A stretch of 64,000 nt of DNA, from the NCBI GenBank assembly GCA_014804265.1, contig JAAVAC010000021.1, positions 700 to 64,699 of the forward strand. Reading direction: 5' to 3'. The notes under the pieces were generated by a model. It was not told the DNA's origin. It saw nothing but the letters and a program-made list of their open reading frames with translations, and did no database searches. The position numbers and the translations under genes are program-made. Positions 3,186 through 64,000 of this stretch are shown here, one piece after another. Each line of letters starts with the position of its first letter. Positions within the stretch are counted from its first letter, which is position 1. This DNA is from Lachnospiraceae bacterium. Lineage in GTDB: Bacteria; Bacillota; Clostridia; Lachnospirales; Lachnospiraceae.

Positions 3186-4390
3186 AAGAAACTCCTTTCC
3201 ACTTTTCTGTTCAGACCTTCCACCGCACCTATCATCACCAACAGGATCAGTCCCAAATAAAAGGGAAACAGCTTATAGCTCACATGCTTTGCCAGAAATC
3301 CCAACAGGGGCGGCATAAAAGTGGTGCCCACATAGGCACATGCCATTTGAATCCCCATGATTCCCTGAGAATACTTACTTCCGAAATTGTCCGGTGTGGC
3401 ATGGAGCATGGAGGGATAAATAGGCGCACAGCCCAGCCCTATGAAAAAAAGCCCCAAAAGCTGTACCGTAAGTCCAAAGGGAAGCAATAAGAATACTACC
3501 CCCATGCCGGCAACTCCCTGCCCCAGACGCACCATCTGTCTGTTGGAAAGCTTTATGGTTAAAAATCCGGACAAGAATCTTCCAAAGGTAATTCCAAAAT
3601 AAAACAAAGCAATCCACTTTGCCGCCTGCTCAGGGAAAACTCCTTTTTCCATGACCAGATAGCTGCTGCCCCACAGCCCTGCGGAGGCTTCCAGGGCACA
3701 ATAACAGAAAAATCCCACTAATGCCTGCTTCGCTCCCTTTAACTTCAACATTCCCAAAATGCCCGGATTTACCTTTTCTTCCGTTTGATTTTTTCCCGTT
3801 TCACTCTCTTTTTCCTGTTCTTTTTTCTCTTCTGTTCCTTCCACTTTTTTCCACAGGGAAATGGAACAGAACAAACATACCACCAGGCAAAATTGAATCA
3901 GGCTGATCACTCCGTAACCAGACTGCCAGTTTCCCCCATCCCTAAGACAGAAGGAAATTATCACGGGACCTGTAGTTGCGCCGACTCCCCAAAAGCAATG
4001 GAGCCAGCTCATATGCCTTGCTTTATAATGAAGGGCCACAAAGTTATTTAATGCTGTATCCACGCTACCACCACCTAATCCTAAAGGAATTGCCAAAAAA
4101 CACAGCATCCAATATTCCTTACTTACGGAAAATCCCAAAAGGGCAACTGCCGTCATAAGCACACTGATTCCGGTAGTCCATCCCGTTCCCAGCTTTTTTA
4201 TGATCTTACTGCTAAACAGGCTGGAAACAATCGTCCCCCCTGAAATAATCATGGAAATAATTCCTCCATAGGAAATGGGAACATTCATTTCCTGATAAAT
4301 AGAAGGCCATGCCGAGCCCAAAAGGGAGTCCGGCAGCCCCAGACTGATAAATGCCAGATAAATAATAATAAGTAAAACCGTTAAAAACAT
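3182..4390 (-). CDS. MFS transporter
   Basis: 402 aa, about 12 hydrophobic segments split by a charged central loop (EEKKEQEKESETGK). Overlaps the glucosidase start by 4 nt. Confidence 0.8.
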   Translation of the reverse strand: MFLTVLLIIIYLAFISLGLPDSLLGSAWPSIYQEMNVPISYGGIISMIISGGTIVSSLFSSKIIKKLGTGWTTGISVLMTAVALLGFSVSKEYWMLCFLAIPLGLGGGSVDTALNNFVALHYKARHMSWLHCFWGVGATTGPVIISFCLRDGGNWQSGYGVISLIQFCLVVCLFCSISLWKKVEGTEEKKEQEKESETGKNQTEEKVNPGILGMLKLKGAKQALVGFFCYCALEASAGLWGSSYLVMEKGVFPEQAAKWIALFYFGITFGRFLSGFLTIKLSNRQMVRLGQGVAGMGVVFLLLPFGLTVQLLGLFFIGLGCAPIYPSMLHATPDNFGSKYSQGIMGIQMACAYVGTTFMPPLLGFLAKHVSYKLFPFYLGLILLVMIGAVEGLNRKVERSFL

Positions 4391-6918: not shown

Positions 6919-7107
6919 TCATCTACGCATCTCTACAACATAAGCGCTCAACCCACTTGAAAAGGCAAAATGATTTTCATTCAAAATCTCACATGATTGA
7001 ATCAAATCCCCCTTCTTGGCATTGTAACAGAATATTACTTCATTATTGCACGAATCAATTACAATTAAGTCCGAGTCATATACAACAACAAATTTGTCAT
7101 CCCACAT
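6919..7107 (-). CDS. hypothetical 62-aa ORF, possibly a gene fragment
   Basis: ORF track only. Beta-strand-like repeats. Directly preceded by a 55-codon ORF (7114..7281) of similar character. Confidence 0.25.
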   Translation of the reverse strand: MWDDKFVVVYDSDLIVIDSCNNEVIFCYNAKKGDLIQSCEILNENHFAFSSGLSAYVVEMRR

Positions 7108-7316
7108 AATTATTTAGGCTGGTTTCGTGACAAAACAGGTTGGATGGAATATGCCACAATCTAATATTAAATAAATCAATGGTGTATGCAAGATTTTCTC
7201 TATGGATTTATCTCTTTGGATTTTTAATAATAAATCATCCTTTATTGCAAAAAATATCTGCTTTTCAAATGAATATGTCATGCCTCGTTTCCATACTCCT
7301 TACTATTTCCACCTTC

Positions 7317-21427: not shown

Positions 21428-22092
21428 TTATAACCGCACCCCCAGACCGTTTCTATCCATTCCCTCTCAGAGTATTGGGAAAGCTTGTTCCGAATGCGTC
21501 GTATCAGCTCCGTCACGACTCTACTGTCTCCCTCGCCTTCATAGGAGCAGACCCTTTCATAAATCGTTTCCTTATCATAGACATATCCTGCATTTCCTGC
21601 CAGAAATTCAATAATCTCATATTCCATTTTCGTAAACTCGATTTCCTCTTCTCCCCATGTAACAGTCCTTCCGGCAAAATCAATGCCAAGCTCTCCAAAG
21701 AAACGGATCTTTGCTTTTTGCCCGTGACGTTCTTCCCGTTTTAAATGGGCTATGATCCTTGCTTCCAGCTCCTTTAGGCTAAAAGGCTTTCCAATATAAT
21801 CATCCCCGCCGGAAAGCAATCCATTGATCCGGTCCTGCTCCTCAATTTTTGCCGTTAAAAAAAGAATGGGGCAGCTTACTTTGTCCCGGATGAGCTTACA
21901 TAGGGAAAGTCCGTCCAGTCTGGGCATATTGATGTCCAATAAAATGATGTCCGGTTCTGTTTCTATTTTCTTTAAGGCTTCTATTCCGTTTTCTGCCTGG
22001 TAAACCAGATAGCCTTTTTTGTCAAAATATAGTTTTAGCATTTTTAACAGATCTTGATCATCGTCTACCAGTAGGATTTTGTATTGGGTCAT
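21415..22092 (-). CDS. OmpR-family response regulator
   Basis: Receiver domain (KILLVDDD...DIILLDINMP) plus a winged-helix output (VWGCGYKW). Start set at MTQYKILLVDDD after AGGAGG. Confidence 0.9.
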   Translation of the reverse strand: MTQYKILLVDDDQDLLKMLKLYFDKKGYLVYQAENGIEALKKIETEPDIILLDINMPRLDGLSLCKLIRDKVSCPILFLTAKIEEQDRINGLLSGGDDYIGKPFSLKELEARIIAHLKREERHGQKAKIRFFGELGIDFAGRTVTWGEEEIEFTKMEYEIIEFLAGNAGYVYDKETIYERVCSYEGEGDSRVVTELIRRIRNKLSQYSEREWIETVWGCGYKWNK

Positions 22093-22166
22093 GGGAAATG
22101 CCTCCTGTTGTTTTGGGGAGTTTGTACTGGGGTTGCTGGTTTTGGGAAGGTGGTGGCGGGGCGGAC

Positions 22167-22394
22167 GCAAAAGAGGGATGTGGGTGGATTCCAGGCGGTG
22201 TTTTTGATGGAGTTTTTCCTAAACAGCCTGATTTAAGGTGTTGGTACCGGTCGGGTCGGCATATAGCGCCGTCCGTGGCGCAATATGCCTAAAATTGCCG
22301 TCCATGGCAATTTTCCCCTGGGTTCGTGGACAGGCTGTTAAGGAAAAGCACCATCAAAAACAATGCCTGGAATCCACCCACATCCCTCTTTTGC
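22167..22394. repeat. 228-nt foldback: 30-bp perfect inverted repeat extended to ~64-nt arms around a 100-nt centre
   Basis: 22167-22196 (gcaaaagagggatgtgggtggattccaggc) is the exact reverse complement of 22365-22394. The next 34 nt inward pair with 5 mismatches. The centre holds small hairpins with GTCCGT and GTCCAT loops. Confidence 0.85.
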
Positions 22395-22460
22395 TGTTTC
22401 GTTTCTGCCTGTACGCTTTGCTAAGCTGTTGCCGCCTTTTAAAGTAGGGGCAAGGCTTTT

Positions 22461-22700
22461 CAAGGTATTCCGCAGATAAAGTAACATTTGCTTTTTTAAT
22501 TGTTTCCAAAAAGTTCCAGGTTATTCCGAAGATATTATAACGCTTGGTTTTAAATTATTTTCAGAGAGCTTCAGGTTGTTTTAAATAAAATATCAATTGC
22601 TTTTAAATCTCAAAAGAGTTCCAGATTATTTTATTCCAATCATAAATATCATCCGCTTTTAAATCCCTTCCAAGTCGTTAAAATCATTACAAAAGAATAA
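22461..22700. repeat. degenerate AT-rich tandem repeats (about four units of ~50-58 nt)
   Basis: Recurring units by eye: tyCAGgTTatt...GCTTTTAAAT...AAAAGaGTT. Confidence 0.5.
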
Positions 22701-22733
22701 GCCTTTAGTATAGCAGAGGGCTTTCGATACCCA

Positions 22734-22881
22734 GTAGGAACTGGCATATCATCTAGTAGTCTTCTGGGCCTTGGCAAAGTCGCCAGCACTTACGCACCGT
22801 ATTTGGGTGCGTTAGTACTGCTGCGTCTTTGCAGAGCGAGAGCGTGCCCAGAAGACTACTAGATGATATGCCAGTTCCTAC
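22734..22881. repeat. 148-nt long hairpin element, copy A (unclassified; candidate structured RNA or DNA palindrome)
   Basis: 22734-22769 is the exact reverse complement of 22846-22881. The conserved 76-nt interior is shared with 63192-63267. Confidence 0.85.
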
Positions 22882-23010
22882 GTCCTCCTATCCAAAACCC
22901 TTCCCCCCTTTCCCAAAATTATAGCATGAAAATCCCAACAAAAAAACAACAGTCCCAACTAATTAAGCAAATATATAAAATTTGTTTTTTTACAGACATA
23001 AATATCCCTC

Positions 23011-23039
23011 TTGCCCCTTCCCCCACCCTGTGCTATAAT
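23011..23039 (+). promoter_or_regulatory. sigma-A-type promoter for the preQ1 riboswitch operon
   Basis: TTGCCC (23011-16), 17-nt spacer, and an extended -10 TGcTATAAT (23031-39). Lies ~20 nt upstream of the aptamer. Confidence 0.55.
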
Positions 23040-23061
23040 AACCATACTTTACAAGTACATA

Positions 23062-23101
23062 AGACAGTTCGTGACCATCCTGTCTCTAAACAAAACTAGG
23101 G
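23062..23101 (+). promoter_or_regulatory. preQ1-I riboswitch aptamer
   Basis: AGACAG-UUCGUGACCAUC-CUGUCU-CUAAACAAAACUAGGG parallels B. subtilis queC AGAGG-UUCUAGCUACAC-CCUCU-AUAAAAAACUAAGG. Shared features are a short P1, UUC after P1, a C before the P1 3' strand, and an A-rich tail ending ACUAGG. The downstream genes are queuosine-related. Confidence 0.75.
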
Positions 23102-23157
23102 ATTTCAAGAAGGCTTTGCGCAAAAGGCGCACAGGCTGTTTCTTTTGCATGAAGATG

Positions 23158-23188
23158 GACACGTGAAAACGTGTCCTTTTCTATTTTA
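23158..23188 (+). terminator. intrinsic terminator (riboswitch expression platform)
   Basis: ggacacgt-gaaa-acgtgtcc followed by ttttctatttt. Located between the aptamer and the radical-SAM start codon. Confidence 0.65.
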
Positions 23189-24915: not shown

Positions 24916-25167
24916 AGTATCATCTCCTTTTTTCTTCTTTTTGTACAAACAATTGAATAACCTCTTCATAAAAGCATCACCCCATAAATAGTATGAATCT
25001 TCATAAAAAAATTATTCTAATATGCAAAGCTTCTTATATCTATCATTATTTTAATACATCATTGTCATTTCTTCAACCACTACATCTAGTAGAAAATGTA
25101 CAAAAAAGTAAAAAACACGACTATTTCCTATATCTTGTATCAATCATTATACTCCCCATATATCCAC

Positions 25168-26451
25168 CTACTCCATAGGCACCATTACCCATTGCAGGTT
25201 ATCCCCCCATGTTTCCTTTTCCATTCCTGTCAATGGTACAAAAAATTTAGCTCCATCCTTTTTAGCGCCTTCCTTTTCCAGTTCCTCTTTTGTCCAATAG
25301 CAAGAACACCCCTTTTCTCCCGATGACAGCCTCTTAAAACTACTATTATCAATAAAGTATTGCATATCATACACGATACCATTCTCCATCTGAAAATAGT
25401 AATATATGATTCTTGCTCCCCCTTCGGGTATTTCCTTTCCGCCCATATCAGCCATATATTGGTATCCGCTGCTTATCATTTCCATATCAGAACCTAAAAT
25501 ATCCTCAAGAATCGCTTTTGCCTTTTTATAATTAGCAGAATATAATTGTTCAAACTCCTGATTAATTTCAACTGCATTCCTCGTTTGATAGTCATAGTCA
25601 TTGTCATGGACATAAATCCATTCGATCTGTCCCATCCCCATAGCTATCATCACAGTATAAAACACAGTGCTTTCTGATTTTTCACTCAAATACACATAAT
25701 AGGAGCCCGCTCCGTTATAATCTACTTCCTTATCCATGGATGAAGCATCCAGATCAAACATTTTTTCTACCGCAGAACCTGCTATTTCCATTGCTTCATC
25801 CTCTTCCACTTTGTCGGAAGAATCCTCGGCAGCTTTACTTAGCTCTTCACTCCTCTGACTCACAGCAGCTGACAGCTTATATTCAAAATCTATCATCCGT
25901 AACAAGTCCTCATCCGTCAATGTCCGCTTAGGCAGAAAATATTCATGGTTCCAAATTTCAAAAACGGGATGTTCCACCTCCCTGCCAGTATCTTCCATCT
26001 TATCAACAATATCTATTTCCTCTTTCGGAGTCAGTCCCCCCTCCTCATATCTATCCTGTAAATCCCTCCAACGTGCCTGTTCTTCCTCTGACATTTCTCT
26101 GGAAAAACATATTCCTTCCGTCATGTGTTCTTTCGTTATCTTATCGGAATCAATCGTTTCCAAATATCGTTCATAACTGTTCTTATTCCCTTTTGCCGCC
26201 TTTTCACCCTGACTGCTAACCGGACTCCCTGCCGTCTCTTCCCATCTGTTAACCGACTCATCTGCCGCTTCCACCCCACTGCTGACCGATTCTTCTTCCA
26301 CTTCCTCTTTTCTGTCACCGCCATATTTTTTTACGGCATTACAGGCTGAAAAAACAGCCACTGCCAACATCGCACAAAGAAAGATCCCCCCAAAAAGAAG
26401 CCTGTTCTGATTTCTTTTTTTCTTTGCCTCATCGGCTTTCTCCTGCTTCAT
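25168..26451 (-). CDS. putative lipoprotein, paralog of the anti-sigma extracytoplasmic domain (copy 1)
   Basis: Start at MKQEKADE after GGGAGGAGAAGG. Signal peptide ending VFSAC (lipobox-like). Shares blocks such as EHPVFEIWNHEYFLPKRTLTDEDLL with ORFs 26475.. and 27945... Confidence 0.6.
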   Translation of the reverse strand: MKQEKADEAKKKRNQNRLLFGGIFLCAMLAVAVFSACNAVKKYGGDRKEEVEEESVSSGVEAADESVNRWEETAGSPVSSQGEKAAKGNKNSYERYLETIDSDKITKEHMTEGICFSREMSEEEQARWRDLQDRYEEGGLTPKEEIDIVDKMEDTGREVEHPVFEIWNHEYFLPKRTLTDEDLLRMIDFEYKLSAAVSQRSEELSKAAEDSSDKVEEDEAMEIAGSAVEKMFDLDASSMDKEVDYNGAGSYYVYLSEKSESTVFYTVMIAMGMGQIEWIYVHDNDYDYQTRNAVEINQEFEQLYSANYKKAKAILEDILGSDMEMISSGYQYMADMGGKEIPEGGARIIYYYFQMENGIVYDMQYFIDNSSFKRLSSGEKGCSCYWTKEELEKEGAKKDGAKFFVPLTGMEKETWGDNLQWVMVPME

Positions 26452-26474
26452 AAAAACCTTCTCCTCCCATCTTC

Positions 26475-27719
26475 TTACTCCATAGGCACCACTATCCATT
26501 GTAAGTTTTCATTCCTGTATGCTTCCTTTTCCGCTCCTGTCAATGGTACAATGAATTTATCCCCCGCCTTTTGGGCTCCTTCCTTTTCCAGTTCCTCTTT
26601 TGTCCGATAGGCAGAATACTTCTTTTCTTCCTCTGACAGCGCATGAAAACTGTTTTTATCAACGAAATATTTTATATGATACACCATACCGTCCTCCATT
26701 TGAAAATAGTAATGTATGATTCCCGGTTCCCCCTTGGGCATTTCCTTTCCTCCTATATCTGTCCAGTATTGACAGCCGCTGCTTACCATTTTCATATCAG
26801 AACCTAAAATATCCTCTAGAATCGTTTTTGCCTTTTTATAATTGGCAGAATATAATTGTTCAAACTCCTGATTGATTTCAACTGCATTCTCCATGCCAAA
26901 CTCATTGACATGGTCATCAATCCCTTCAACCCTTCCCGTCTCTACAGCAATCATCACAGTATACGCAGTACTTTCTGATTTTTCACCAAGAAATACTAGA
27001 TAGGAAGCCACCCCATTAAAGAGTATTTCTTTATCCATGGATGAAGCATCTACCCCAAACATTTTCTCTATCGCATAACCGGCTATTTCCATTGCTTCAT
27101 CCTCTTCCACTTTGTGGGGAGAAGATAAAACAGCCTTCCTCTTCTCTTCATTCCTTTGCATCTGGGCAGCCAACAGCTTATACTGGAAATCCACCATCTG
27201 TAGCAAATCCTCATCCGTCAATGTCCGTTTTGGCAGAAAATATTCATGGTTCCAAATTTCAAAAACGGGATGCTCCACCTCCCTGTCACTATCTTCCATC
27301 TTGTCAACAATCTCTATTTCCTCTTCTGGAGCAAGCCCGTCCTCTTCATATCTATCCTGAAAATCCTGATAACGTGCCAATTCTTCCTCTGACATCTCTC
27401 TGGAAAAACACGCAGCTTCTGTTGCATGTTCCTTTGTTATCTTTTCCTGATCAGTTACTTCTAAATACCGTTCCATACTGTTCTTATTCCCTTTTACCGC
27501 CTTTTCTTCCTGGCTGTTAACCGAACCCTCTGATGCTTCTTCCCGACTGCTGGCTGGACTCTCAGCCATTTCTTCTTTTCCGCCATCCCCATATTTTTTT
27601 ACGGCATTACATGCTGAAAAAAATGCCACTGACAACATCACACAAAGAAACATGCCCACAAAAAGAAGCATGCTCTTATTCCTTTTTTTCTTCACTTCAC
27701 CGAATTTCTCCTGCTTCAT
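26475..27719 (-). CDS. putative lipoprotein, paralog of the anti-sigma extracytoplasmic domain (copy 2)
   Basis: Start at MKQEKFGE after AGGAGGAG. Signal peptide ending FFSAC. Tandem duplicate of 25168..26451. Confidence 0.6.
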   Translation of the reverse strand: MKQEKFGEVKKKRNKSMLLFVGMFLCVMLSVAFFSACNAVKKYGDGGKEEMAESPASSREEASEGSVNSQEEKAVKGNKNSMERYLEVTDQEKITKEHATEAACFSREMSEEELARYQDFQDRYEEDGLAPEEEIEIVDKMEDSDREVEHPVFEIWNHEYFLPKRTLTDEDLLQMVDFQYKLLAAQMQRNEEKRKAVLSSPHKVEEDEAMEIAGYAIEKMFGVDASSMDKEILFNGVASYLVFLGEKSESTAYTVMIAVETGRVEGIDDHVNEFGMENAVEINQEFEQLYSANYKKAKTILEDILGSDMKMVSSGCQYWTDIGGKEMPKGEPGIIHYYFQMEDGMVYHIKYFVDKNSFHALSEEEKKYSAYRTKEELEKEGAQKAGDKFIVPLTGAEKEAYRNENLQWIVVPME

Positions 27720-27944
27720 AAGAACCATTCTCCTCCTGTCTTTTTCTCCCCTGCCTGCCACATTGCATGTGCTGCAAACCAGCTTCTCTCCGCTTATGAA
27801 AAAAACAATATTCGTCAATTACGGTTGCAAGGTGTTTCCCAATTGACCTGAAACAATATAGACAGTACCATAGCTGCTTTCAACTATGGCACTGTCAACA
27901 TTGATTAGAGCATTTACAATAAATTTACTATCTCAAACCCCCTT

Positions 27945-35305: not shown

Positions 35306-35377
35306 CGTACCCGAGAGGAATCGAACCCCCATCGGCTGAACCGGAATCAGCTGTTCTATCCGTTAAACTACGGGTAC
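35306..35377 (-). tRNA. tRNA-Arg (anticodon CCG)
   Basis: Hand-folded cloverleaf: acceptor GTACCCG/CGGGTAC, D-arm GTTT-AACGGATA-GAAC, anticodon arm GCTGA-TTCCGGT-TCAGC, T-loop GGTTCGATTCC. CCA is not encoded. Confidence 0.85.
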
Positions 35378-58327: not shown

Positions 58328-60736
58328 CTATTCTTCATACCCTTCACTTCCGCCTGAATCCTCCTGCTCATTCTCACTTGGGGTTCCAGATATATCTCCA
58401 ATAGCTGAAAACTGTGGGTCTGCATATTCCATCGTATCAGGGTCTACCTGATAACCGGTAAGGGGATCGATAATATTTCCGGTATTGTCATCATAGGTAT
58501 ATTCCGGCTTCTCTGCTTCCTCCTCCTGTTCAGTTTCTTCTTCCGACTCTTCCTCTTCTGTTCCTTCCTCTGTAGAATTGCCGCTGACAGTGCCCAGTAT
58601 CTGTAACCTTCGCAACTCCTCCTCCTGTTCTTCTGTCAACTGCTCCGTGCGGAAAATATTCATATAGGGAAGAATTTCCGTAAAAATTCCTTTTGCGATT
58701 TCCTGGGCAAAAGTGGAATGGGGCTGATCCGCTACATTCGGCCGATCCACCACTACATATACTACCACCTGGGGATCATCAGCTGGCGCATATCCGATAA
58801 AGGATACTACATATTGTCCCTGCTTACGGGGGTAGGTTTCTGCTGTCCCCGTTTTGCCGCCAATCAGATAGCCTGCCGGTACTGCTGTTGTCGCCGTTCC
58901 TGTTACACAGACTGCATTCAGATAAGTCTTCATCTTTTCGGATGTCTCTGTAGATACTACCTGCTTCAGCACTCTTGGCGCTATCGTTTCTGCAGTAGAG
59001 CCGTCGGGATTTTGAATTTCCGTAGCAATATGGGGTTCATAATAATATCCTCCGTTAATAATAGAACAGAATGCGCTTGCCAACTGTATCATCGTCACCT
59101 TATATCCCTGTCCAAAAGTAGAAATAGCCAAATCGGATCTTACCATGGAATCCACATCATAAATCAGATTGGCAGTTCTGGCTTCTCCCGCCAGATCTAT
59201 ATTTGTTTTCAGCCCTACATTAAAATTGGTCAGATATTTCATGAATGTTTCCGTCCCAATAGCATCTCCTATATGCATCAGCGCCACATTGCAGGACTGC
59301 TCTAAGGCACCTGACACATTTAAGTTTCCATGCCCGTTTGTTTTATGGCAATGAATATGATGGCCGCTTACCTCCAGCTGACCGGAACAATCATAATATT
59401 CATTGCCTGTTATTTTTCCGGAGTCCAATCCAGTCGCAATTGTCATTGTCTTTGCGGTGGAACCGGGCTCATAGGCATCCTGGATACAATAATTTCTCCA
59501 CAATGTCTGCAATGTATCAAGATAGGTATCCTCTTCTTCCATTTTTGCAATTTCTGTGTCGGAATAATAAGCGGAAATATCTCTTGGATTGTTCAGATCG
59601 TAATCCGGATAGGCTGCCATTGCCATAACATTTCCTGTTTTTGGATTCATAACGATTACACCTGTATGTTTGCTTCCAAGCTCGCCCTGTCTGAATTCCC
59701 CTTTATGCTCTTCATTAAACTGTTTAATATATTTTTCCACAATCTTCTGAATATTGACATCTAAAGAGGTAACCACGTTTTTTCCATCCACTGCCGCCTT
59801 CGTAGTACGTTCCAGCTCGGAATCATCATTTAAATATCCGTATTCCCTTCCGTTGGTACCGTTTAAGGTATCACTGTAATATGCTTCCAGTCCATTTGTG
59901 CCGATATTGTCCCTGCTTGTAAAGCCTAATACATGACAGGCAAGGCTTCCATAAGGATATACTCTTTTGTATTCTTCCTCAAACCAGATCCCCTTAACAT
60001 TGGCCCCCTTTTCTTTATCCTTCTGCAATTCTAAAAAAGGACTGATTTCTTCATAGGTAAGCTGTTTTTTTACTACAAAGTATTTATCATTGGGCTTTTC
60101 TGCCAGATGGTTCCTGATTTCATTGGCATCCACTCCAAAACAGGTATTCAGGGCAGTTACCGTAGGCTCCACATATGCCTGCTTGGAATTGATGACACTG
60201 GCATCCACCACTAAATTGTATACCTTTTCGCTATATGCCAGCCTTGTTCCTTTCGCATCAATAATGTCCCCTCTTTTATATGGAAGTACTTTGCTACTAT
60301 ATTCCTGTTGGGAAAGCACCTGTTTCTTATAATTTTCGCTGTCTTCTCGATTGATTGCATAAAGCCTCAGGCTTAAACCTAGGAAAGCTAACAGTACTAC
60401 GATAAATAGCACTGCTAGCTTTTTCTGCATTCTTATGGTAAATCTTGCGGCGATTCCCTTTAAAGCTGTTTCCTGCCGCCGGGCAAACCTATCCTGCGAA
60501 TTCATTCTTCCTGGAATGCTTCTGTTTTCCGGGTTCCTGCCGTTTCTTTCCGCTCTTGTGTCTTCCCGATTCCGGATGCTTCTTTCCGGCCTTCTATTTT
60601 CCTGATTCCGGATGCTTCTTTCCAGCCTTCTATCGTCTAAATTCCGGATGTTCCTTTCCACTCTTCTATCATCCAGATTCCGGATGTTTCTTTGAGGGTT
60701 TCGATTTCTTTGATGATTTCTATTTTCTATACTCAT
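58328..60736 (-). CDS. class B penicillin-binding protein with repeat-containing N-terminal extension and acidic C-terminal tail
   Basis: Transpeptidase motifs STAK, SCN, KTGT. About 100-aa Arg/Asn-rich cytoplasmic extension with 13-aa tandem repeats. C-terminal Glu-rich tail. Confidence 0.9.
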   Translation of the reverse strand: MSIENRNHQRNRNPQRNIRNLDDRRVERNIRNLDDRRLERSIRNQENRRPERSIRNREDTRAERNGRNPENRSIPGRMNSQDRFARRQETALKGIAARFTIRMQKKLAVLFIVVLLAFLGLSLRLYAINREDSENYKKQVLSQQEYSSKVLPYKRGDIIDAKGTRLAYSEKVYNLVVDASVINSKQAYVEPTVTALNTCFGVDANEIRNHLAEKPNDKYFVVKKQLTYEEISPFLELQKDKEKGANVKGIWFEEEYKRVYPYGSLACHVLGFTSRDNIGTNGLEAYYSDTLNGTNGREYGYLNDDSELERTTKAAVDGKNVVTSLDVNIQKIVEKYIKQFNEEHKGEFRQGELGSKHTGVIVMNPKTGNVMAMAAYPDYDLNNPRDISAYYSDTEIAKMEEEDTYLDTLQTLWRNYCIQDAYEPGSTAKTMTIATGLDSGKITGNEYYDCSGQLEVSGHHIHCHKTNGHGNLNVSGALEQSCNVALMHIGDAIGTETFMKYLTNFNVGLKTNIDLAGEARTANLIYDVDSMVRSDLAISTFGQGYKVTMIQLASAFCSIINGGYYYEPHIATEIQNPDGSTAETIAPRVLKQVVSTETSEKMKTYLNAVCVTGTATTAVPAGYLIGGKTGTAETYPRKQGQYVVSFIGYAPADDPQVVVYVVVDRPNVADQPHSTFAQEIAKGIFTEILPYMNIFRTEQLTEEQEEELRRLQILGTVSGNSTEEGTEEEESEEETEQEEEAEKPEYTYDDNTGNIIDPLTGYQVDPDTMEYADPQFSAIGDISGTPSENEQEDSGGSEGYEE

Positions 60737-62718: not shown

Positions 62719-62760
62719 TACCACTCTCTACCACTTTATACCACTTTCCACCACTTATGT
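62719..62760 (-). promoter_or_regulatory. candidate MraZ operator: four direct AGTGGT repeats at exact 10-bp spacing
   Basis: Minus strand reads ATAAGTGGTG GAAAGTGGTA TAAAGTGGTA GAGAGTGGTA. A TATAAA hexamer lies just upstream, and the site ends 46 nt before the mraZ ATG. Confidence 0.65.
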
Positions 62761-62980
62761 GACCATTTTATACTATTGAGAGTGGTATTACAAGCTTTTT
62801 TTTAGAATTCTGGGCAAAAAAAAATACGCCTGATTCGGCATATTTTTCATGGGTTCTATATGTTGTGGGAACGTGTTTTCGGTGTGCTATATGCTGGGAA
62901 ATGGTTTAGAAGGGGGGATAGACGGATGCGGATGCGGAAGAGGGATGTGGGTGGATTTGCCTGTACCTTCTGTGAAAGCA

Positions 62981-63105
62981 GATGCCTTGATTTAGATATG
63001 CTATATAAAAATGCGCTTATTTAAAATATGCATATTTAAAGTACATCATTTTAAGATGCGCTATTTTAAGATACACTTATTTTAAAATTCACCGATATAA
63101 AGATA
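62981..63105. repeat. about eight tandem ~15-nt AT-rich repeats (consensus ryrcnwATTTAArAT)
   Basis: Read by eye: gcgcttatttaaaat / atgcatatttaaagt / acatcattttaagat / gcgctattttaagat / acacttattttaaaatt ... Confidence 0.6.
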
Positions 63106-63160
63106 CTCCTAAACAGCAAACATCTCATCAATTATGAAATGCCGGCCTTTACGATACACA

Positions 63161-63298
63161 GTAGGAGCTGCCATATAGTAGCCTTAGGGGCCTTGGCAAA
63201 GTCGCCGGCACTTACGCACCGTATTTTGGTGCGTTAGTACCGCTGCGTCTTTGCAGAGCGAAAGCGTGCCCCAAAGACTACTATATGGCAGCTCCTAC
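63161..63298. repeat. 138-nt long hairpin element, copy B
   Basis: 63161-63181 is the exact reverse complement of 63278-63298. The interior 63192-63267 differs from copy A at only 4 positions. Confidence 0.85.
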
Positions 63299-63327
63299 GT
63301 CCCCCCGCCAAAAGCCCCATCCAATTT

Positions 63328-64000
63328 TCATACCATCTTTTCCATCTTTTTCATACGAATCCTCACCACCACATCAACAGCCACTGCCACCACAAACATG
63401 GTAATCCCCAGCATTTGGGAAACTGCAATATTGGTATGGGGGAGTAAAAGCTGGTCGGTACGCAGTCCTTCAATCCAGAATCGTCCCAGTCCATATCCAC
63501 CAAGATAAACCAAGGCTAACTCACCATTGAATTTCTTGTGCTTTCTGTAAAGCATCATAAAGGTAAGAATGCCCACATTCCAAAGGCTTTCGTAGAGGAA
63601 AGTGGGATGAACCTGGATGTAATTGGTTCCTTCTGCTATATGGGCAGACAGATCTGCCGATATATCGGACTTTCTTACAGCTTCTATGGGAAGGCGCATG
63701 GCAAGGGGATTGTCCGTGTATCCGCCAAAGCATTCCCGATTCATGAAATTCGCCCAGCGTCCGATAATCTGTCCTAAAATCAATGCCGGCACTCCTGTAT
63801 CCGCCATTAAGAAGGGGGAAACTTTTTTAATCTTCGCATATATGAACAAGGTGGTGAAGGCACCGATTACCGTTCCATAAATGGCTATGCCTCCTTCCCT
63901 TAAATTGAAAATGCTCAGCAGATTATCTTTATAATTGTCCCAGGAAAAGATAACATAGTAGGTTCTTGAGCCACAGATGGAAAAGAAAATGGCATACATG
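63328..64000 (-). CDS. lgt: prolipoprotein diacylglyceryl transferase (5' end beyond the window)
   Basis: GGIAIYGTVIG, GRWANFMNRECFG, and HPTFLYESLWN blocks. The ORF is open to the window end. Confidence 0.9.
   Translation of the reverse strand, partial: MYAIFFSICGSRTYYVIFSWDNYKDNLLSIFNLREGGIAIYGTVIGAFTTLFIYAKIKKVSPFLMADTGVPALILGQIIGRWANFMNRECFGGYTDNPLAMRLPIEAVRKSDISADLSAHIAEGTNYIQVHPTFLYESLWNVGILTFMMLYRKHKKFNGELALVYLGGYGLGRFWIEGLRTDQLLLPHTNIAVSQMLGITMFVVAVAVDVVVRIRMKKMEKMV

Follow-up and report, generated by a model that had tools for sequence, protein, structure and literature searches.

A repeated intergenic module of Lachnospiraceae as a probable composite foldback MITE with a conserved three-helix apex

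Two long intergenic regions of the window (the whole 64-kb stretch of DNA analysed) carry modules built from the same parts. Locus A (22144–22930) lies beside a response-regulator gene, and locus B (62912–63330) adjoins lgt, whose stop codon (63328–63330, minus strand) is overlapped by the end of the module. An earlier note had described a colinear module at both loci, and all the parts it listed were found with minor corrections, the common order running from a G-rich left arm through a 20-mer, TGCCTGTAC and an AT-rich spacer to a CGATAC box, and closing with a long hairpin followed by a C-rich tail. Its judgement that no credible ORF is present also stands, since only spurious ORFs of at most 78 aa overlap locus A; simple and composite members of the wider element family likewise contain no ORF. 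Locus A is made up as follows.

22144–22169, no strand assigned: G-rich left-arm remnant GGGAAGGTGGTGGCGGGGCGGACGCA, the inverted counterpart of the C-rich tail.
22167–22394, minus strand: TwoAYGGAY foldback, comprising the RF01731 match and an extended outer stem.
22393–22414, no strand assigned: linker GCTGTTTCGTTTC plus TGCCTGTAC, conserved among composite copies.
22415–22717, no strand assigned: hypervariable AT-rich spacer, in which 22465–22665 holds some four tandem repeats of ~55 nt.
22718–22733, no strand assigned: pre-hairpin box GGGCTTTCGATACCCA, preceding the long hairpin.
22734–22881, plus strand: long hairpin, with P1 arms 22734–22769 and 22846–22881 (36 bp, 100% complementary).
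22882–22930, no strand assigned: C-rich right-arm remnant (tail) CGTCCTCCTATCCAAAACCC..., its terminal repeat decayed.

The corresponding parts of locus B are these.

62912–62937, no strand assigned: G-rich left-arm remnant GGGGGGATAGACGGATGCGGATGCGG, aligning with that of A.
62938–62966, no strand assigned: solo 20-mer joined directly to TGCCTGTAC, lacking A 22191–22405.
62967–63143, no strand assigned: AT-rich spacer, with 15/30-nt tandem units at 63003–63102.
63144–63160, no strand assigned: pre-hairpin box GGCCTTTACGATACACA, aligned with that of A.
63161–63298, plus strand: long hairpin, with P1 arms 63161–63191 and 63268–63298 (31 bp, 94% complementary).
63299–63330, no strand assigned: C-rich tail CGTCCCCCCGCCAAAAGCCCCATCC..., running into the lgt stop codon.

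Pairwise alignment, proposed in the earlier note as a check, extends the similarity of A and B past the hairpin to the box, tail and left arm; the sequence leading into the hairpin (box gcctttNcgatacNca) and the tail (cgtccYcc...CCAAAAsCCC) align as had been described. The reported G-rich 19-mer, AGAGGGATGTGGGTGGATT, is present at both loci, its coordinates in A having been given one position too low. It occurs at 22172–22190 (+), 22371–22389 (−) and 62939–62957 (+), the chance expectation being 0.05 matches with three mismatches tolerated, and the identity runs on to 20 nt, AAGAGGGATGTGGGTGGATT. The 9-mer TGCCTGTAC follows the 20-mer directly in B (62958–62966) and lies downstream of the foldback in A (22406–22414). 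The 215-nt insertion ascribed to A is exact, 22191–22405 being absent from B, and the entire foldback spans 22167–22394.

Each part can also be traced in paralogous copies elsewhere. The left-arm remnant of A shares homology with the outer 5′ arm found in simple foldback copies, and GG.GTGGCT.AG.GGACGC stands immediately 5′ of TwoAYGGAY in paralogous composite copies; GGATAGACGGATGCG, in the left arm of B, is the same as the outer 5′ arm seen in long-stem copies L012, L030, L069 and L075. A linker consensus, GCTGTTT(C/T)GT.TCAGCC.(G/A)TAC, opens the spacer in at least 20 composite copies, and every composite (‘type 1’) copy has the box (G)GCTTTCGATAC(A/C)CAG upstream of its hairpin. The tail consensus is CGTCC....ATCCAAA.CCCC, extending to ...TTGACAAAACAGGCTGAACTGTTAC in the better-kept copies L016, L017, L070 and L026:5420–5477. 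Copy A in the window has no recognisable terminal inverted repeat.

The foldback of locus A corresponds to a catalogued RNA motif. A cmscan search, also suggested in the earlier note, matched 22197–22364 on the minus strand to Rfam TwoAYGGAY (RF01731) with 95.1 bits against a gathering score of 43, covering model positions 1–168 of 168 and giving terminal loops AUGGAC and ACGGAC; the long hairpin found no Rfam match. The outer stem (22167–22230 / 22331–22394, arms of 64 nt, 92% complementary) incorporates the 20-mer at 22171–22190 and its inverted copy at 22371–22390. In 18 paralogous loci there are 16 further RF01731 matches above the gathering score, all at the same relative position, 5′ of the hairpin apex and on the opposite strand. 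The solo 20-mer of B is the 5′ outer-stem strand of a deleted TwoAYGGAY, and partial TwoAYGGAY deletions are seen in L030, L058 and L074 as well. The motif is absent from the gut-metagenome subfamilies of the hairpin. In a wobble-pair test on TwoAYGGAY the few G:T cells represented one inherited position. TwoAYGGAY was described from human gut, gamma-Proteobacteria and Clostridiales, with function unknown (Weinberg et al. 2010, PMC2864571), and our literature search found nothing on TwoAYGGAY function or on Lachnospiraceae MITEs.

The AT-rich block behaves quite differently. TTTAAA-core tandem units do occur at both loci, as had been noted, but the blocks of A and B do not align and show no homology. 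Direct-repeat families D1–D5 recur in the A spacer at spacings of 50–56 nt. Across the family the spacer varies from 45 to 325 nt with no sequence conserved among copies, and a motif search across spacers returned only loosely recurring GC(W)TTTTAA(R) words. Copy L019 (MAG JAAUZH01), orthologous to locus B, entirely lacks the equivalent of window 62953–63144, so that the spacer is absent in this sister strain. Because the spacer is hypervariable and the two blocks cannot be aligned, what the loci have in common here is position and composition, not conserved sequence.

The long hairpin, in contrast to the spacer, is strongly conserved, and was correctly recognised at both loci, where each copy encloses 76 nt. 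In A the three-helix apex occupies 22770–22845 (covariance-model match 22762–22853), the fold reaches −110.9 kcal/mol (z = −11.4), and our covariance model R1 scores 104.5 bits on the plus strand against 27.6 on the minus strand. In B the apex lies at 63192–63267 (match 63184–63275), with z = −8.7 and 105.1 bits, again on the plus strand. The two are 91% identical over 22750–22865 and 63172–63287, with compensated differences in the arms and a 5-bp indel on both arms. Rfam gave no match to the hairpin at the gathering threshold, none over 22100–23100 at E up to 10, and none in 11 metagenome loci carrying the apex motif. The ~90-nt apex is thus a previously uncatalogued, strongly conserved folded motif. 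It is laid out as a three-way junction of P1, P2 and P3. P2 is a long interrupted helix with an A-rich:T-rich base, an invariant CGC:GCG, a tip of 7 bp closed by the loop GTATTTT, and conserved irregularities comprising a C.A mismatch, two U.U mismatches and a CU bulge. P3 is a GC-GNRA-GC mini-hairpin (GCGAGAGC on the plus strand in A). This apex is common to all subfamilies, including unrelated ones from gut metagenomes.

Covariation was assessed in two non-overlapping family sets, with statistics that are cell-based, not event-based, and in both the observed score exceeded all 500 shuffles and all controls with slid partners. In the seed alignment both sides change in 24 of 31 pairs, and the score is 0.343 against 0.151 when shuffled (reached in 0 of 500) and at most 0.129 with slid partners. 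Independent metagenome families show double changes in 20 of 23 P2 pairs, with 95% of cells paired and a score of 0.279 against a control of 0.118. The P3 loop is GAAA, GAGA, GGGA or GCAA in 79 of 81 distinct sequences, and one P3 stem variant, GT-GCGA-AC, is compensated. Among 3045 P1 pairs, 2943 are Watson-Crick, 29 G:T, 43 A:C and 30 other. Wobble pairs, examined as a mark of RNA versus DNA and of strand, showed no bias in P1 or apex; G:U makes up ~1–1.5% of apex pairs, with no strand preference and no excess over A:C. The arms behave like DNA palindromes, and their complementarity would be maintained by intrastrand template switching and/or selection for pairing, as opposed to RNA-type covariation. 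The apex appears to be the part under sequence selection. Since it is kept across subfamilies that otherwise share only termini, and in situ between species, it would be expected to act in a single-stranded, folded form, the main candidates being a terminator-like RNA element that is transcribed and resists nucleases, and a site in folded single-stranded DNA.

The copy census proposed earlier identifies the hairpin as a multi-copy interspersed repeat, in support of a mobile element. A 22-nt core pattern matches 71 loci in five Lachnospiraceae MAGs, which together hold at least 80 complete copies. Complete apexes in the retrieved loci number at least 51 in JAAUZH01, 13 in CAMWWJ01, 11 in JAMPFB01, four in CAJUEX01 and one in JAAVHB01. 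Model R1 finds two copies within the 64-kb window, and the apex motif recurs in hundreds of copies across gut Clostridia. Many copies sit at contig ends, and public contigs carrying the window’s response regulator are broken within the module. Phage and plasmid collections yielded no BLAST match to it, no copies were found on phage-like contigs, and of two pattern scans of viral contigs one gave two chance hits in high-GC coding sequence and the other none.

Members fall into two size classes, simple (196–234 bp) and composite (~400–800 bp). The basic element is a near-perfect palindrome of ~232 bp in which two ~78-bp arms close on the asymmetric 76-nt apex, and in 18 simple elements of 230–234 bp the ends form the inverted repeats GTAACAGTTCAGCC / GGCTGAACTGTTAC. 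Inspection of flanks, as the earlier note had advised, revealed 8-bp target-site duplications at these simple members: the 8-bp flanks are identical in 4/18, agree at seven or more of eight positions in 7/18 and at six or more in 11/18, while mismatched flank pairings reach 7/8 in 2%. No other duplication length tested on the 18 elements fits. The duplications are 75% A+T, and a metagenome family has the same end, GTAACAGTTCGGCC, with a perfect ATCACAAG duplication (L106). In the window and other composite copies neither a terminal repeat pair nor a target duplication could be recovered, at most the right end surviving, so the mobility of these copies themselves is suggested by homology and copy number only. 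Structural polymorphism takes the form of a spacer indel between strains and internal TwoAYGGAY deletions among copies.

Taken together, the MITE reading is well supported, and loci A and B are very probably old, partly decayed copies of a composite non-autonomous foldback MITE abundant in Lachnospiraceae. Their colinearity would then reflect descent from a common master copy and not a shared gene or operator. Of the three origins offered in the earlier note (a large ncRNA, a non-autonomous mobile element or a regulatory cassette) the mobile element fits, and a single large ncRNA does not: the module is a mosaic of an Rfam motif on the opposite strand, a hypervariable spacer, foldback arms and a conserved apex. 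The ncRNA and cassette ideas nevertheless keep some substance, in view of the covariation of the apex, the purifying selection on the hairpin at orthologous sites and the non-random orientation of composite copies towards the downstream gene. Comparison of copies shows that in the composite subtype the opposite-strand TwoAYGGAY, the linker, the fast-evolving AT-rich spacer and the CGATAC box interrupt the left arm; most of TwoAYGGAY has been deleted from copy B, and from a sister strain the spacer too. A classical MITE conserves its termini while its centre is free to drift. In this element conservation is instead highest at the centre, and composite copies stand at the same sites in different species under constraint, which is unexpected for a purely selfish relic. 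Nor does the MITE reading account for the orientation of composite copies, 29 of 40 of which turn their tail side to a gene start.

The element would be mobilised in trans by a DDE transposase, and as its family we would guess IS66, given that the ends of that family begin with GTAA and its duplications are 8 bp long. Indeed, IS66-family inverted repeats start GTAAGCG with direct repeats of 8 bp (PMC11946415), and IS66-related MITEs are described in Pseudomonas syringae (PMC3189936). The likeness of the ends is limited to GTAA, the remainder of the element consensus GTAACAG differing from GTAAGCG; the end of copy L051, ATAAGCGTTCAGCC, carries ATAAGCG. The earlier note would have taken a classic IS or MITE with an identifiable transposase partner as a refutation, and this holds by half, as the MITE hallmarks were found but the partner was not: no transposase with matching ends was present in ~1.4 Mb of retrieved sequence searched for end pairs 0.7–6 kb apart, no gene for an IS66-type transposase (TnpC) occurs in the retrieved loci, and solo ends proved to be truncated copies. 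The 1.6-kb IS in L013 and L033 was considered as the parent and rejected: its ends (ATGCCATTAAG...) are unlike those of the element, it duplicates ~11 bp, its transposase is of the IS4 type (DDE_Tnp_1), and it entered the apex secondarily. A group II intron in L061, which diverges right after GGTGCGT, was likewise rejected, the insert (3722–3881) being a nested 160-bp element with its own ~20-bp inverted ends. L063 also diverges right after GGTGCGT, and its insert extends beyond the locus.

Between orthologous sites, 819 of 828 hairpin positions are identical (98.9%), compared with 1801/1925 and 1064/1142 (~93%) in the flanks, a roughly six-fold slower evolution which suggests that P1 and apex are under purifying selection in place. 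The positions of the copies relative to genes are also uneven. Of 40 composite copies, 29 have the tail side directed at the start of a gene on the same strand, the genes downstream being diverse housekeeping genes (rpsL, gap, valS, purM, murE and others) with their -35/-10 hexamers 60–100 nt beyond the tail. Locus B has the opposite arrangement, its tail abutting the end of lgt. Convergent genes flank 2 of 25 composite copies and 25 of 57 simple foldbacks with both neighbours known, and in metagenomes simple foldbacks lie between convergent genes in 25 cases and divergent genes in two. Promoter and terminator scans of both loci found nothing inside the modules beyond chance, and no terminator-like site for lgt other than the hairpin was found in locus B. 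GC skew around copies has no consistent sign (27:17, 11:19, 37:39).

These observations bear on several other readings. It is conceivable, and we put it forward only tentatively, that the whole module, or the hairpin if nothing more, is a family of structured RNAs with a function for the host, the MITE being only its vehicle and now domesticated; RNase III could free the apex RNA from P1, or the apex could work in cis within a 3′ or 5′ UTR, for example as a bidirectional terminator, an insulator or an mRNA-stabilising element. Strong covariation, a GNRA-type loop whose third position is R in all variants, and purifying selection in place on P1 and apex are all consistent with this, and TwoAYGGAY is itself a predicted RNA. 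The A-rich tract, GC-rich stem and TTTTTAT run of most families resemble an intrinsic terminator on both strands, in keeping with the convergent setting of simple metagenome foldbacks and with lgt at locus B having no other terminator-like site, but the T run is degraded to TCTTTGC in the window’s family, P3 and the P1 3′ arm are conserved although downstream of the putative termination point, and neither window copy showed a conserved promoter or a terminator-like site. Enrichment at 3′ ends is also expected from tolerated insertions, and perfect stems of 31–78 bp are atypical of functional bacterial RNAs. The scarcity of G:U, without strand bias, speaks against RNA, unless both strands must fold, which would explain the intolerance. 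A second possibility, which we consider unlikely, is that the apex folds as single-stranded DNA, with the plus strand active, to provide a priming or protein-recognition site in replication or transposition, much as ssi/sso signals or the phage G4 complementary-strand origin do. The P3 sequences GCGAAAGC, GCGAGAGC, GCGCAAGC and GCGGGAGC fall within the GCGNNAGC class of DNA mini-hairpins, described as extraordinarily stable; three of them have measured Tm values of 71.5–76.5 °C, and GCGAAAGC occurs at the phage G4 priming site, ssiA having a related CCGAAGG mini-hairpin (PMC13037366). Pairing that is almost wholly Watson-Crick, with G:T no commoner than A:C, would suit DNA, as would mismatches and a bulge conserved despite the self-correcting tendency of palindromes, and an apex that forms an insertion hotspot (IS4-type elements in L013 and L033, the nested element in L061). 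Yet the third loop position is always a purine, as an RNA GNRA loop needs and a DNA mini-hairpin does not (PMC13037366), the absence of clear GC-skew polarity departs from IS200/IS605-type elements, phage-like contigs lack copies, and the 8-bp duplications with terminal inverted repeats indicate a DDE mechanism acting on double-stranded DNA.

The regulatory cassette of the earlier note, understood as an insulator or UP-like element upstream of promoters or as a divergent antisense unit making TwoAYGGAY RNA, we regard as rather improbable. The orientation of tails towards same-strand starts of diverse housekeeping genes, whose own hexamers follow 60–100 nt beyond the tail, the retention of sites across species and the rarity of composite copies in convergent settings compared with simple ones would all suit a cassette. 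The same positional bias could nevertheless arise from AT-rich target preference and selection against harmful insertions; moreover locus B is reversed, sister strains and paralogs can lack the spacer and TwoAYGGAY through deletion, no conserved promoter-like site lies within the module, and the downstream genes share no functional theme. Finally, high-copy intergenic hairpins with a GTAG/GTGG motif at the base of P1, whose conservation depends on structure, recall REP/RAYT-like or IS200/IS605-derived palindromes moved by an HUH single-strand transposase that recognises the hairpin. This reading is disfavoured by the target duplications and we think it very improbable, as HUH elements make neither terminal inverted repeats nor 8-bp duplications, the copies have no strand polarity with respect to GC skew, and elements of 230–800 bp far exceed REPs of ~35 bp.

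If, as seems best supported, the loci are MITE copies, ordinary transposon biology accounts for the duplicated module, and annotators are warned that such long intergenic regions, and the contig breaks within them, are repeat-driven. TwoAYGGAY gains a genomic context, as a fixed but deletable mobile-element component in these genomes, which redirects hypotheses about its function. The uncatalogued motif is defined by a working covariance model with covariation in every variable helix, and its slow evolution in place suggests that the host keeps MITE-borne structures. We would cautiously entertain a further proposal in two parts: that the apex represents a widespread type of structured nucleic acid with a function, new to science, spread by MITEs in gut Firmicutes and retained by hosts, and, jointly with this, that in the genomes examined these elements may carry TwoAYGGAY as a passenger module, as opposed to a free-standing sRNA gene. 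The apex is indeed nearly invariant, and the copy-specific stem intact, at orthologous sites across species; possible roles would include a bidirectional terminator or insulator, or a small RNA processed from dozens of loci. If the apex is a terminator, insulator or single-stranded DNA priming site, a transposon would be distributing a ready-made functional nucleic-acid module in abundant gut bacteria.

Comparison with known systems helps to place the element. As in TwoAYGGAY RNA (RF01731), the foldback of A is full-length with two AYGGAY loops, but here it forms a constant part within a larger repeated element, always ~45–325 nt from the long hairpin and on the opposite strand, with an outer stem 26 bp longer than the Rfam model, and the element can do without it, as the deletions in locus B and in other copies show. 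P3 exactly matches four of the GCGNNAGC DNA mini-hairpins (PMC13037366), on one strand only, but in a chromosomal interspersed repeat and not a phage or plasmid origin; its loop variants also fit an RNA GNRA tetraloop, whereas GCGATAGC exemplifies a non-GNRA (GATA) loop still fitting a DNA mini-hairpin. Most subfamilies share with bidirectional intrinsic terminators the A-tract, GC-rich interrupted stem-loop and TTTTTAT, as well as enrichment between convergent genes (25 versus two divergent); the window subfamily differs in its degraded TCTTTGC, the conserved P3 and P1 exceed what a terminator needs, and the terminator scan called neither window copy.

The closest parallel in mobility is with IS66-type MITEs, which are likewise short, non-coding, multi-copy and intergenic, with ends starting GTAA, an AT-rich duplication of exactly 8 bp, breaks in short-read assemblies, and nested and decayed copies; here, however, the element resides in a Firmicute (Lachnospiraceae), it forms a near-perfect palindrome over its full length, and the structured centre, not the ends, is most conserved. 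Foldback or structured MITE-like repeats are familiar in bacteria as Correia (Neisseria), RUP and BOX (pneumococcus), bcr1 (Bacillus cereus) and ERIC, which are modular, intergenic, co-transcribed hairpins that can act as terminators or RNase III substrates, BOX having a variable number of internal units and Correia a conserved central IHF site. The present element resembles them as a modular intergenic hairpin repeat with variable internal units and a conserved central site, but its ends differ, its duplication is 8 bp as against TA or none, its stems are much longer, and its apex is a covarying three-helix motif found across otherwise unrelated subfamilies.

The two colinear modules, locus A (22144-22930) and locus B (62912-63330), are very probably decayed copies of a composite foldback family of MITEs (small non-autonomous transposable elements). 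Direct reading and pairwise alignment of both loci confirm the shared order of parts described in the earlier note. The G-rich 19-mer is present in both, its locus A coordinates needing a one-base correction: the window has three matches to AGAGGGATGTGGGTGGATT (22172-22190 and 62939-62957 on the plus strand, 22371-22389 on the minus strand; 0.05 expected by chance), the surrounding identity extending to 20 nt in full. After TGCCTGTAC (22406-22414 in A, 62958-62966 in B) both loci have an AT-rich stretch; the claim of a common repeat block held in so far as both contain tandem units (about 55 nt in A, 15/30 nt in B), and failed in that the blocks cannot be aligned with each other. The box (G)GC(C)TTT(A)CGATAC(A/C)CA then leads into a very stable hairpin, whose long outer stem (P1) is 36 bp and perfect in A (folding z-score -11.4), and 31 bp and 94% complementary in B (z-score -8.7), each enclosing the 76 nt of the apex, and a C-rich tail ends the module at both loci. 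The inner 116 nt of the hairpin are 91% identical between A and B, and between the lower stems there are compensated substitutions and an indel of 5 bp affecting both arms. The neighbours are:

Locus A, left: response-regulator gene, start at 22092, minus strand
Locus A, right: promoter and preQ1 leader of an operon, plus strand
Locus B: lgt (stop at 63328) and the promoter/MraZ-box region of mraZ, both genes on the minus strand

The label of preQ1 promoter beside locus A is backed by a strong promoter-like site (23011-23039, TTGCCC-17-TGnTATAAT) upstream of a sub-threshold PreQ1 riboswitch match (23059-23100; 20 bits, truncated where the searched stretch ends), downstream of which lies a terminator-like hairpin (23157-23176). 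Outside the element, immediately upstream of mraZ and on the opposite strand, TACCACTTTC is repeated 3.8 times with 10-nt spacing (62719-62756), and these look like MraZ operator repeats. Elsewhere in the window, a 36-nt tandem repeat at 60519-60698 (about 4-5 copies, 67-80% identity, CTTCT.T.TTCC.GATTCCGGATG.TTCTTTCC...) is probably within a coding region, and the adjacent segments 25162-26510 and 26469-27730 (each about 1.3 kb, about 80% identity) look like a tandem paralogous gene pair on the minus strand.

The 215-nt foldback noted earlier in locus A is the orphan RNA motif TwoAYGGAY (Rfam RF01731): a minus-strand cmscan match at 22197-22364 covers the whole model and scores 95.1 bits, where the gathering score is 43, with the loops AUGGAC and ACGGAC; the sole other window match above an Rfam gathering score is a tRNA gene (35306-35377, minus strand, 57 bits). 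The outer stem extends beyond the Rfam model (22167-22230 with 22331-22394), the 20-mer supplying one strand of this extension. Locus B retains just the 5' strand of the outer stem, joined to TGCCTGTAC, and lacks exactly 22191-22405 of A, identifying B as a deletion derivative. TwoAYGGAY was first described in 2010, from the human gut, gamma-Proteobacteria and Clostridiales, and classed as probably RNA and not cis-regulatory (PMC2864571). In the genomes examined here it is an internal module of the composite element.

The long hairpin has no Rfam match by cmscan, and the module has none in phage and plasmid collections. In a collection of species-representative genomes a 22-nt core pattern finds 71 loci, all within five Lachnospiraceae MAGs (JAAUZH01, 'Mgla_MAG_0-bin_6'; CAMWWJ01; Robinsoniella sp. 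JAMPFB01; Butyrivibrio sp. JAAVHB01; CAJUEX01). Both window loci have orthologues in JAAUZH01 (database loci L013 for A and L019 for B), with flanks about 93% identical, which marks the source of the window as closely related to that MAG. The 76-nt apex hardly changes among 66 distinct copies, while the stem beneath it differs between copies but remains complementary (2943 Watson-Crick pairs, 29 G:T, 43 A:C and 30 other). Many hairpin copies in the MAGs are no more than 70 nt from a contig end, and the only two public contigs encoding the window's response regulator (L003:1-197 and L004:1-189) both stop inside the TwoAYGGAY foldback; the elements systematically break short-read assemblies. A relaxed pattern in metagenome contigs yields 109 loci, none from the window's subfamily, nearly all with the same architecture and different sequences, a few being chance pattern matches. 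One short-stem metagenome subfamily (P1 about 22 bp, tip AATCCGC:GCGGATT) has many copies per long contig (e.g. OIWU01000001.1, OLGE01000001.1), with at least six fetched from each of two 400-650 kb contigs, implying a very high copy number in certain gut bacteria.

At least 25 loci are composite, or type 1, copies with an interrupted 5' arm, and they run as follows:

Left-arm piece: GG.GTGGCT.AG.GGACGC, the tail's inverted counterpart
TwoAYGGAY: strand always opposite to that of the apex; above the gathering score 16 times in 18 loci
Linker: GCTGTTT.GT.TCAGCC.(G/A)TAC
Spacer: 45-325 nt, essentially unconserved, with frequent private tandem duplications
CGATAC box
P1 of 31-43 bp, with the apex
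Tail: CGTCC....ATCCAAA.CCCC, extending to ...TTGACAAAACAGGCTGAACTGTTAC in well-kept copies

Paired ends or a target duplication are unrecognisable in composite copies, both window copies included. Several must be old, since they share a site between species (window A = L013 = L026; window B = L019; L010 = L023, L025 = L036, L015 = L059 and L027 = L072). Internal TwoAYGGAY deletions are found in L030, L058, L074 and window B, and the JAAUZH01 orthologue of locus B (L019:6180-6620) is without the whole 192-nt AT-rich block (window 62953-63144), the junction of this mraZ-lgt spacer deletion reading GGGATGTG joined to GGCCTTTGCGATAC. In a sister subfamily of the apex, 'Y', P2a is ATGAAG:CTTCAT and GGTCC replaces GGCAC (L053:2888-2979, minus strand; L010:3350-3441; L052:2619-2710; L067:3482-3573). 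In L053 it is accompanied by TwoAYGGAY at 3271-3438 (plus strand) in the identical TwoAYGGAY and spacer layout, and the composite architecture is therefore not limited to one apex variant.

The apex fold, on the window's plus strand, comprises:

P1, then the junction (C)TT(N)
P2a: A-rich 5' strand with T-rich 3' strand, 6-7 bp; GCAAAG:CTTTGC in the window, elsewhere ATGAAG:CTTCAT, ATAAAAA:TTTTTAT, GCAAGGA:TCCTTGC and others
P2: invariant CGC:GCG
P2: C(A/G)G:C(T/C)G with a CT or TT bulge
P2: conserved C.A mismatch, then 3 bp, then a T.T mismatch
P2 tip: 7 bp, fully exchangeable in sequence (ACGCACC:GGTGCGT, AATCCGC:GCGGATT, AGATTGC:GCAATCT and others)
Loop: GTATTTT or a close variant
3' part: AGA, P3 (GC-GNRA-GC), GT, P1'

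In the seed alignment of 36 sequences both sides change in 24 of 31 pairs, with a covariation score of 0.343 against 0.151 in shuffles (attained by 0/500) and at most 0.129 for slid partners. R1, our covariance model of the fold, has exactly two matches in the window (22762-22853 and 63184-63275, both plus strand, about 105 bits, the reverse strand scoring about 28 bits there) and about 95 forward-strand matches above 45 bits in the genome loci. Among 98 metagenome matches P2 is 95% paired, a percentage inflated by fitting the alignment to the model; pair-type diversity, which is not inflated, shows double changes in 20 of 23 pairs (covariation score 0.279 against 0.118, 0/500). The P3 loop is GAAA (51), GAGA (14), GGGA (8) or GCAA (6) in 79 of 81 distinct sequences, the other two being an AAAA loop and a copy carrying an insertion, and one copy has a compensated P3 variant, GT-GCGA-AC. 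The asymmetry of P3 makes the window's plus strand the folding strand. This covarying three-helix centre is common to many otherwise unrelated foldback families of gut bacteria, and the motif is not in Rfam 15.

The apex itself looks like an insertion hotspot, given nested small elements and an IS of about 1.6 kb. The same IS (ends ATGCCATTAAGTTAAGAAAAAAG, a 438-aa IS4-type DDE_Tnp_1 transposase, and a duplication of about 11 bp, GCACTTACGCA) lies in two hairpin copies, L013:400-1997 and L033 (junction near plus coordinate 202), at the identical position between ACTTACGCA and ATGCC..., suggesting that it prefers the apex motif as target. Just after GGTGCGT, L061 holds a 160-bp nested element (3722-3881; inverted ends of about 20 bp, AAGGAACTGTA(T/C)GAAAATAAC), and L063 an insert (7030-7115) that extends past the end of the locus.

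Roughly half the copies (type 2) are simple, near-perfect palindromes of 230-234 bp with arms of about 78 bp and the termini GTAACAGTTCAGCC ... GGCTGAACTGTTAC. Outside these ends, 8-bp direct repeats are identical in 4 of 18 cases, agree at 7/8 positions or better in 7 and at 6/8 or better in 11, while 2% of mismatched control pairings attain 7/8. Eight is the sole length with exact repeats, and the duplications are 75% A+T; in the metagenome member L106, which has the end GTAACAGTTCGGCC, the duplication ATCACAAG is perfect. The same ends, with different arms, occur in sister families of 196-220 bp, and truncated and nested copies exist. The ends and duplications are hallmarks of DDE-type transposition. 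Among the options raised in the earlier note, the non-autonomous mobile element is thereby upheld, the family being multi-copy and its simple members having terminal repeats and 8-bp duplications.

In six clear interspecies orthologous pairs, P1 and the apex are identical at 819 of 828 positions (98.9%), compared with 1064/1142 and 1801/1925 (93-94%) in the sequences on either side, promoters and coding starts included; between window A and L013 the hairpin is identical at 138/138 positions and each flank differs by about 7-9%. Conversion from other copies is ruled out as the cause, because P1 is copy-specific. Hairpin mutations are being removed in situ, by purifying selection on the apex motif and stem at fixed chromosomal sites, which is not expected of a purely selfish relic. 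The placement of composite copies is likewise non-random: their tail side points toward a same-strand gene start in 29 of 40, a rule obeyed by locus A and not by locus B. The genes it faces have varied housekeeping roles, and -35/-10 hexamers of their own lie 60-100 nt past the tail; this placement may reflect either function or a bias of insertion and retention. Upstream of gene starts, a stretch of 60-120 nt is strikingly rich in C and poor in G on the coding strand (window 22093-22170, e.g. CCCCAAAACAACAGGAGG before the response regulator; downstream of the tail in many loci, such as L025 and L062), which appears to be a genome-wide property reaching past the element's tail.

What the apex does we infer from these patterns. 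The complementarity of the arms is no proof of RNA, because intrastrand template switching can correct quasipalindromes (PMC7202029), and a folded single-stranded DNA site is the second most likely reading. G:U-type pairs are no commoner than A:C, although this rarity is equally expected if both transcripts must fold; GCGNNAGC is an 'extraordinarily stable mini-hairpin DNA' (Tm 71-76 C), and GCGAAAGC is present at the phage G4 single-strand priming site (PMC13037366). A role confined to the element's own transposition ranks third. The orientation of copies, independent of GC skew, argues against a single-strand transposition mechanism. Most likely the apex is a transcribed terminator-like or stabilising RNA element: the third base of the P3 loop is always a purine, a GNRA requirement; most subfamilies have an A-tract, a GC-rich stem and TTTTTAT, resembling an intrinsic terminator usable on both strands; and of the simple foldbacks in metagenomes, 25 have convergent neighbouring genes and only 2 have divergent ones.

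Beyond the ordinary are TwoAYGGAY as an element module, the covarying centre absent from Rfam 15 and the purifying selection at fixed sites. As to ancestry, about 1.4 Mb of sequence fetched around copies contains no transposase with matching ends, so that assignment to the IS66 family is a lead rather than a result. That family is marked by GTAA-initial ends and 8-bp duplications (PMC11946415), and the simple members likewise have GTAA ends, one copy reading ATAAGCG, and duplications of 8 bp.
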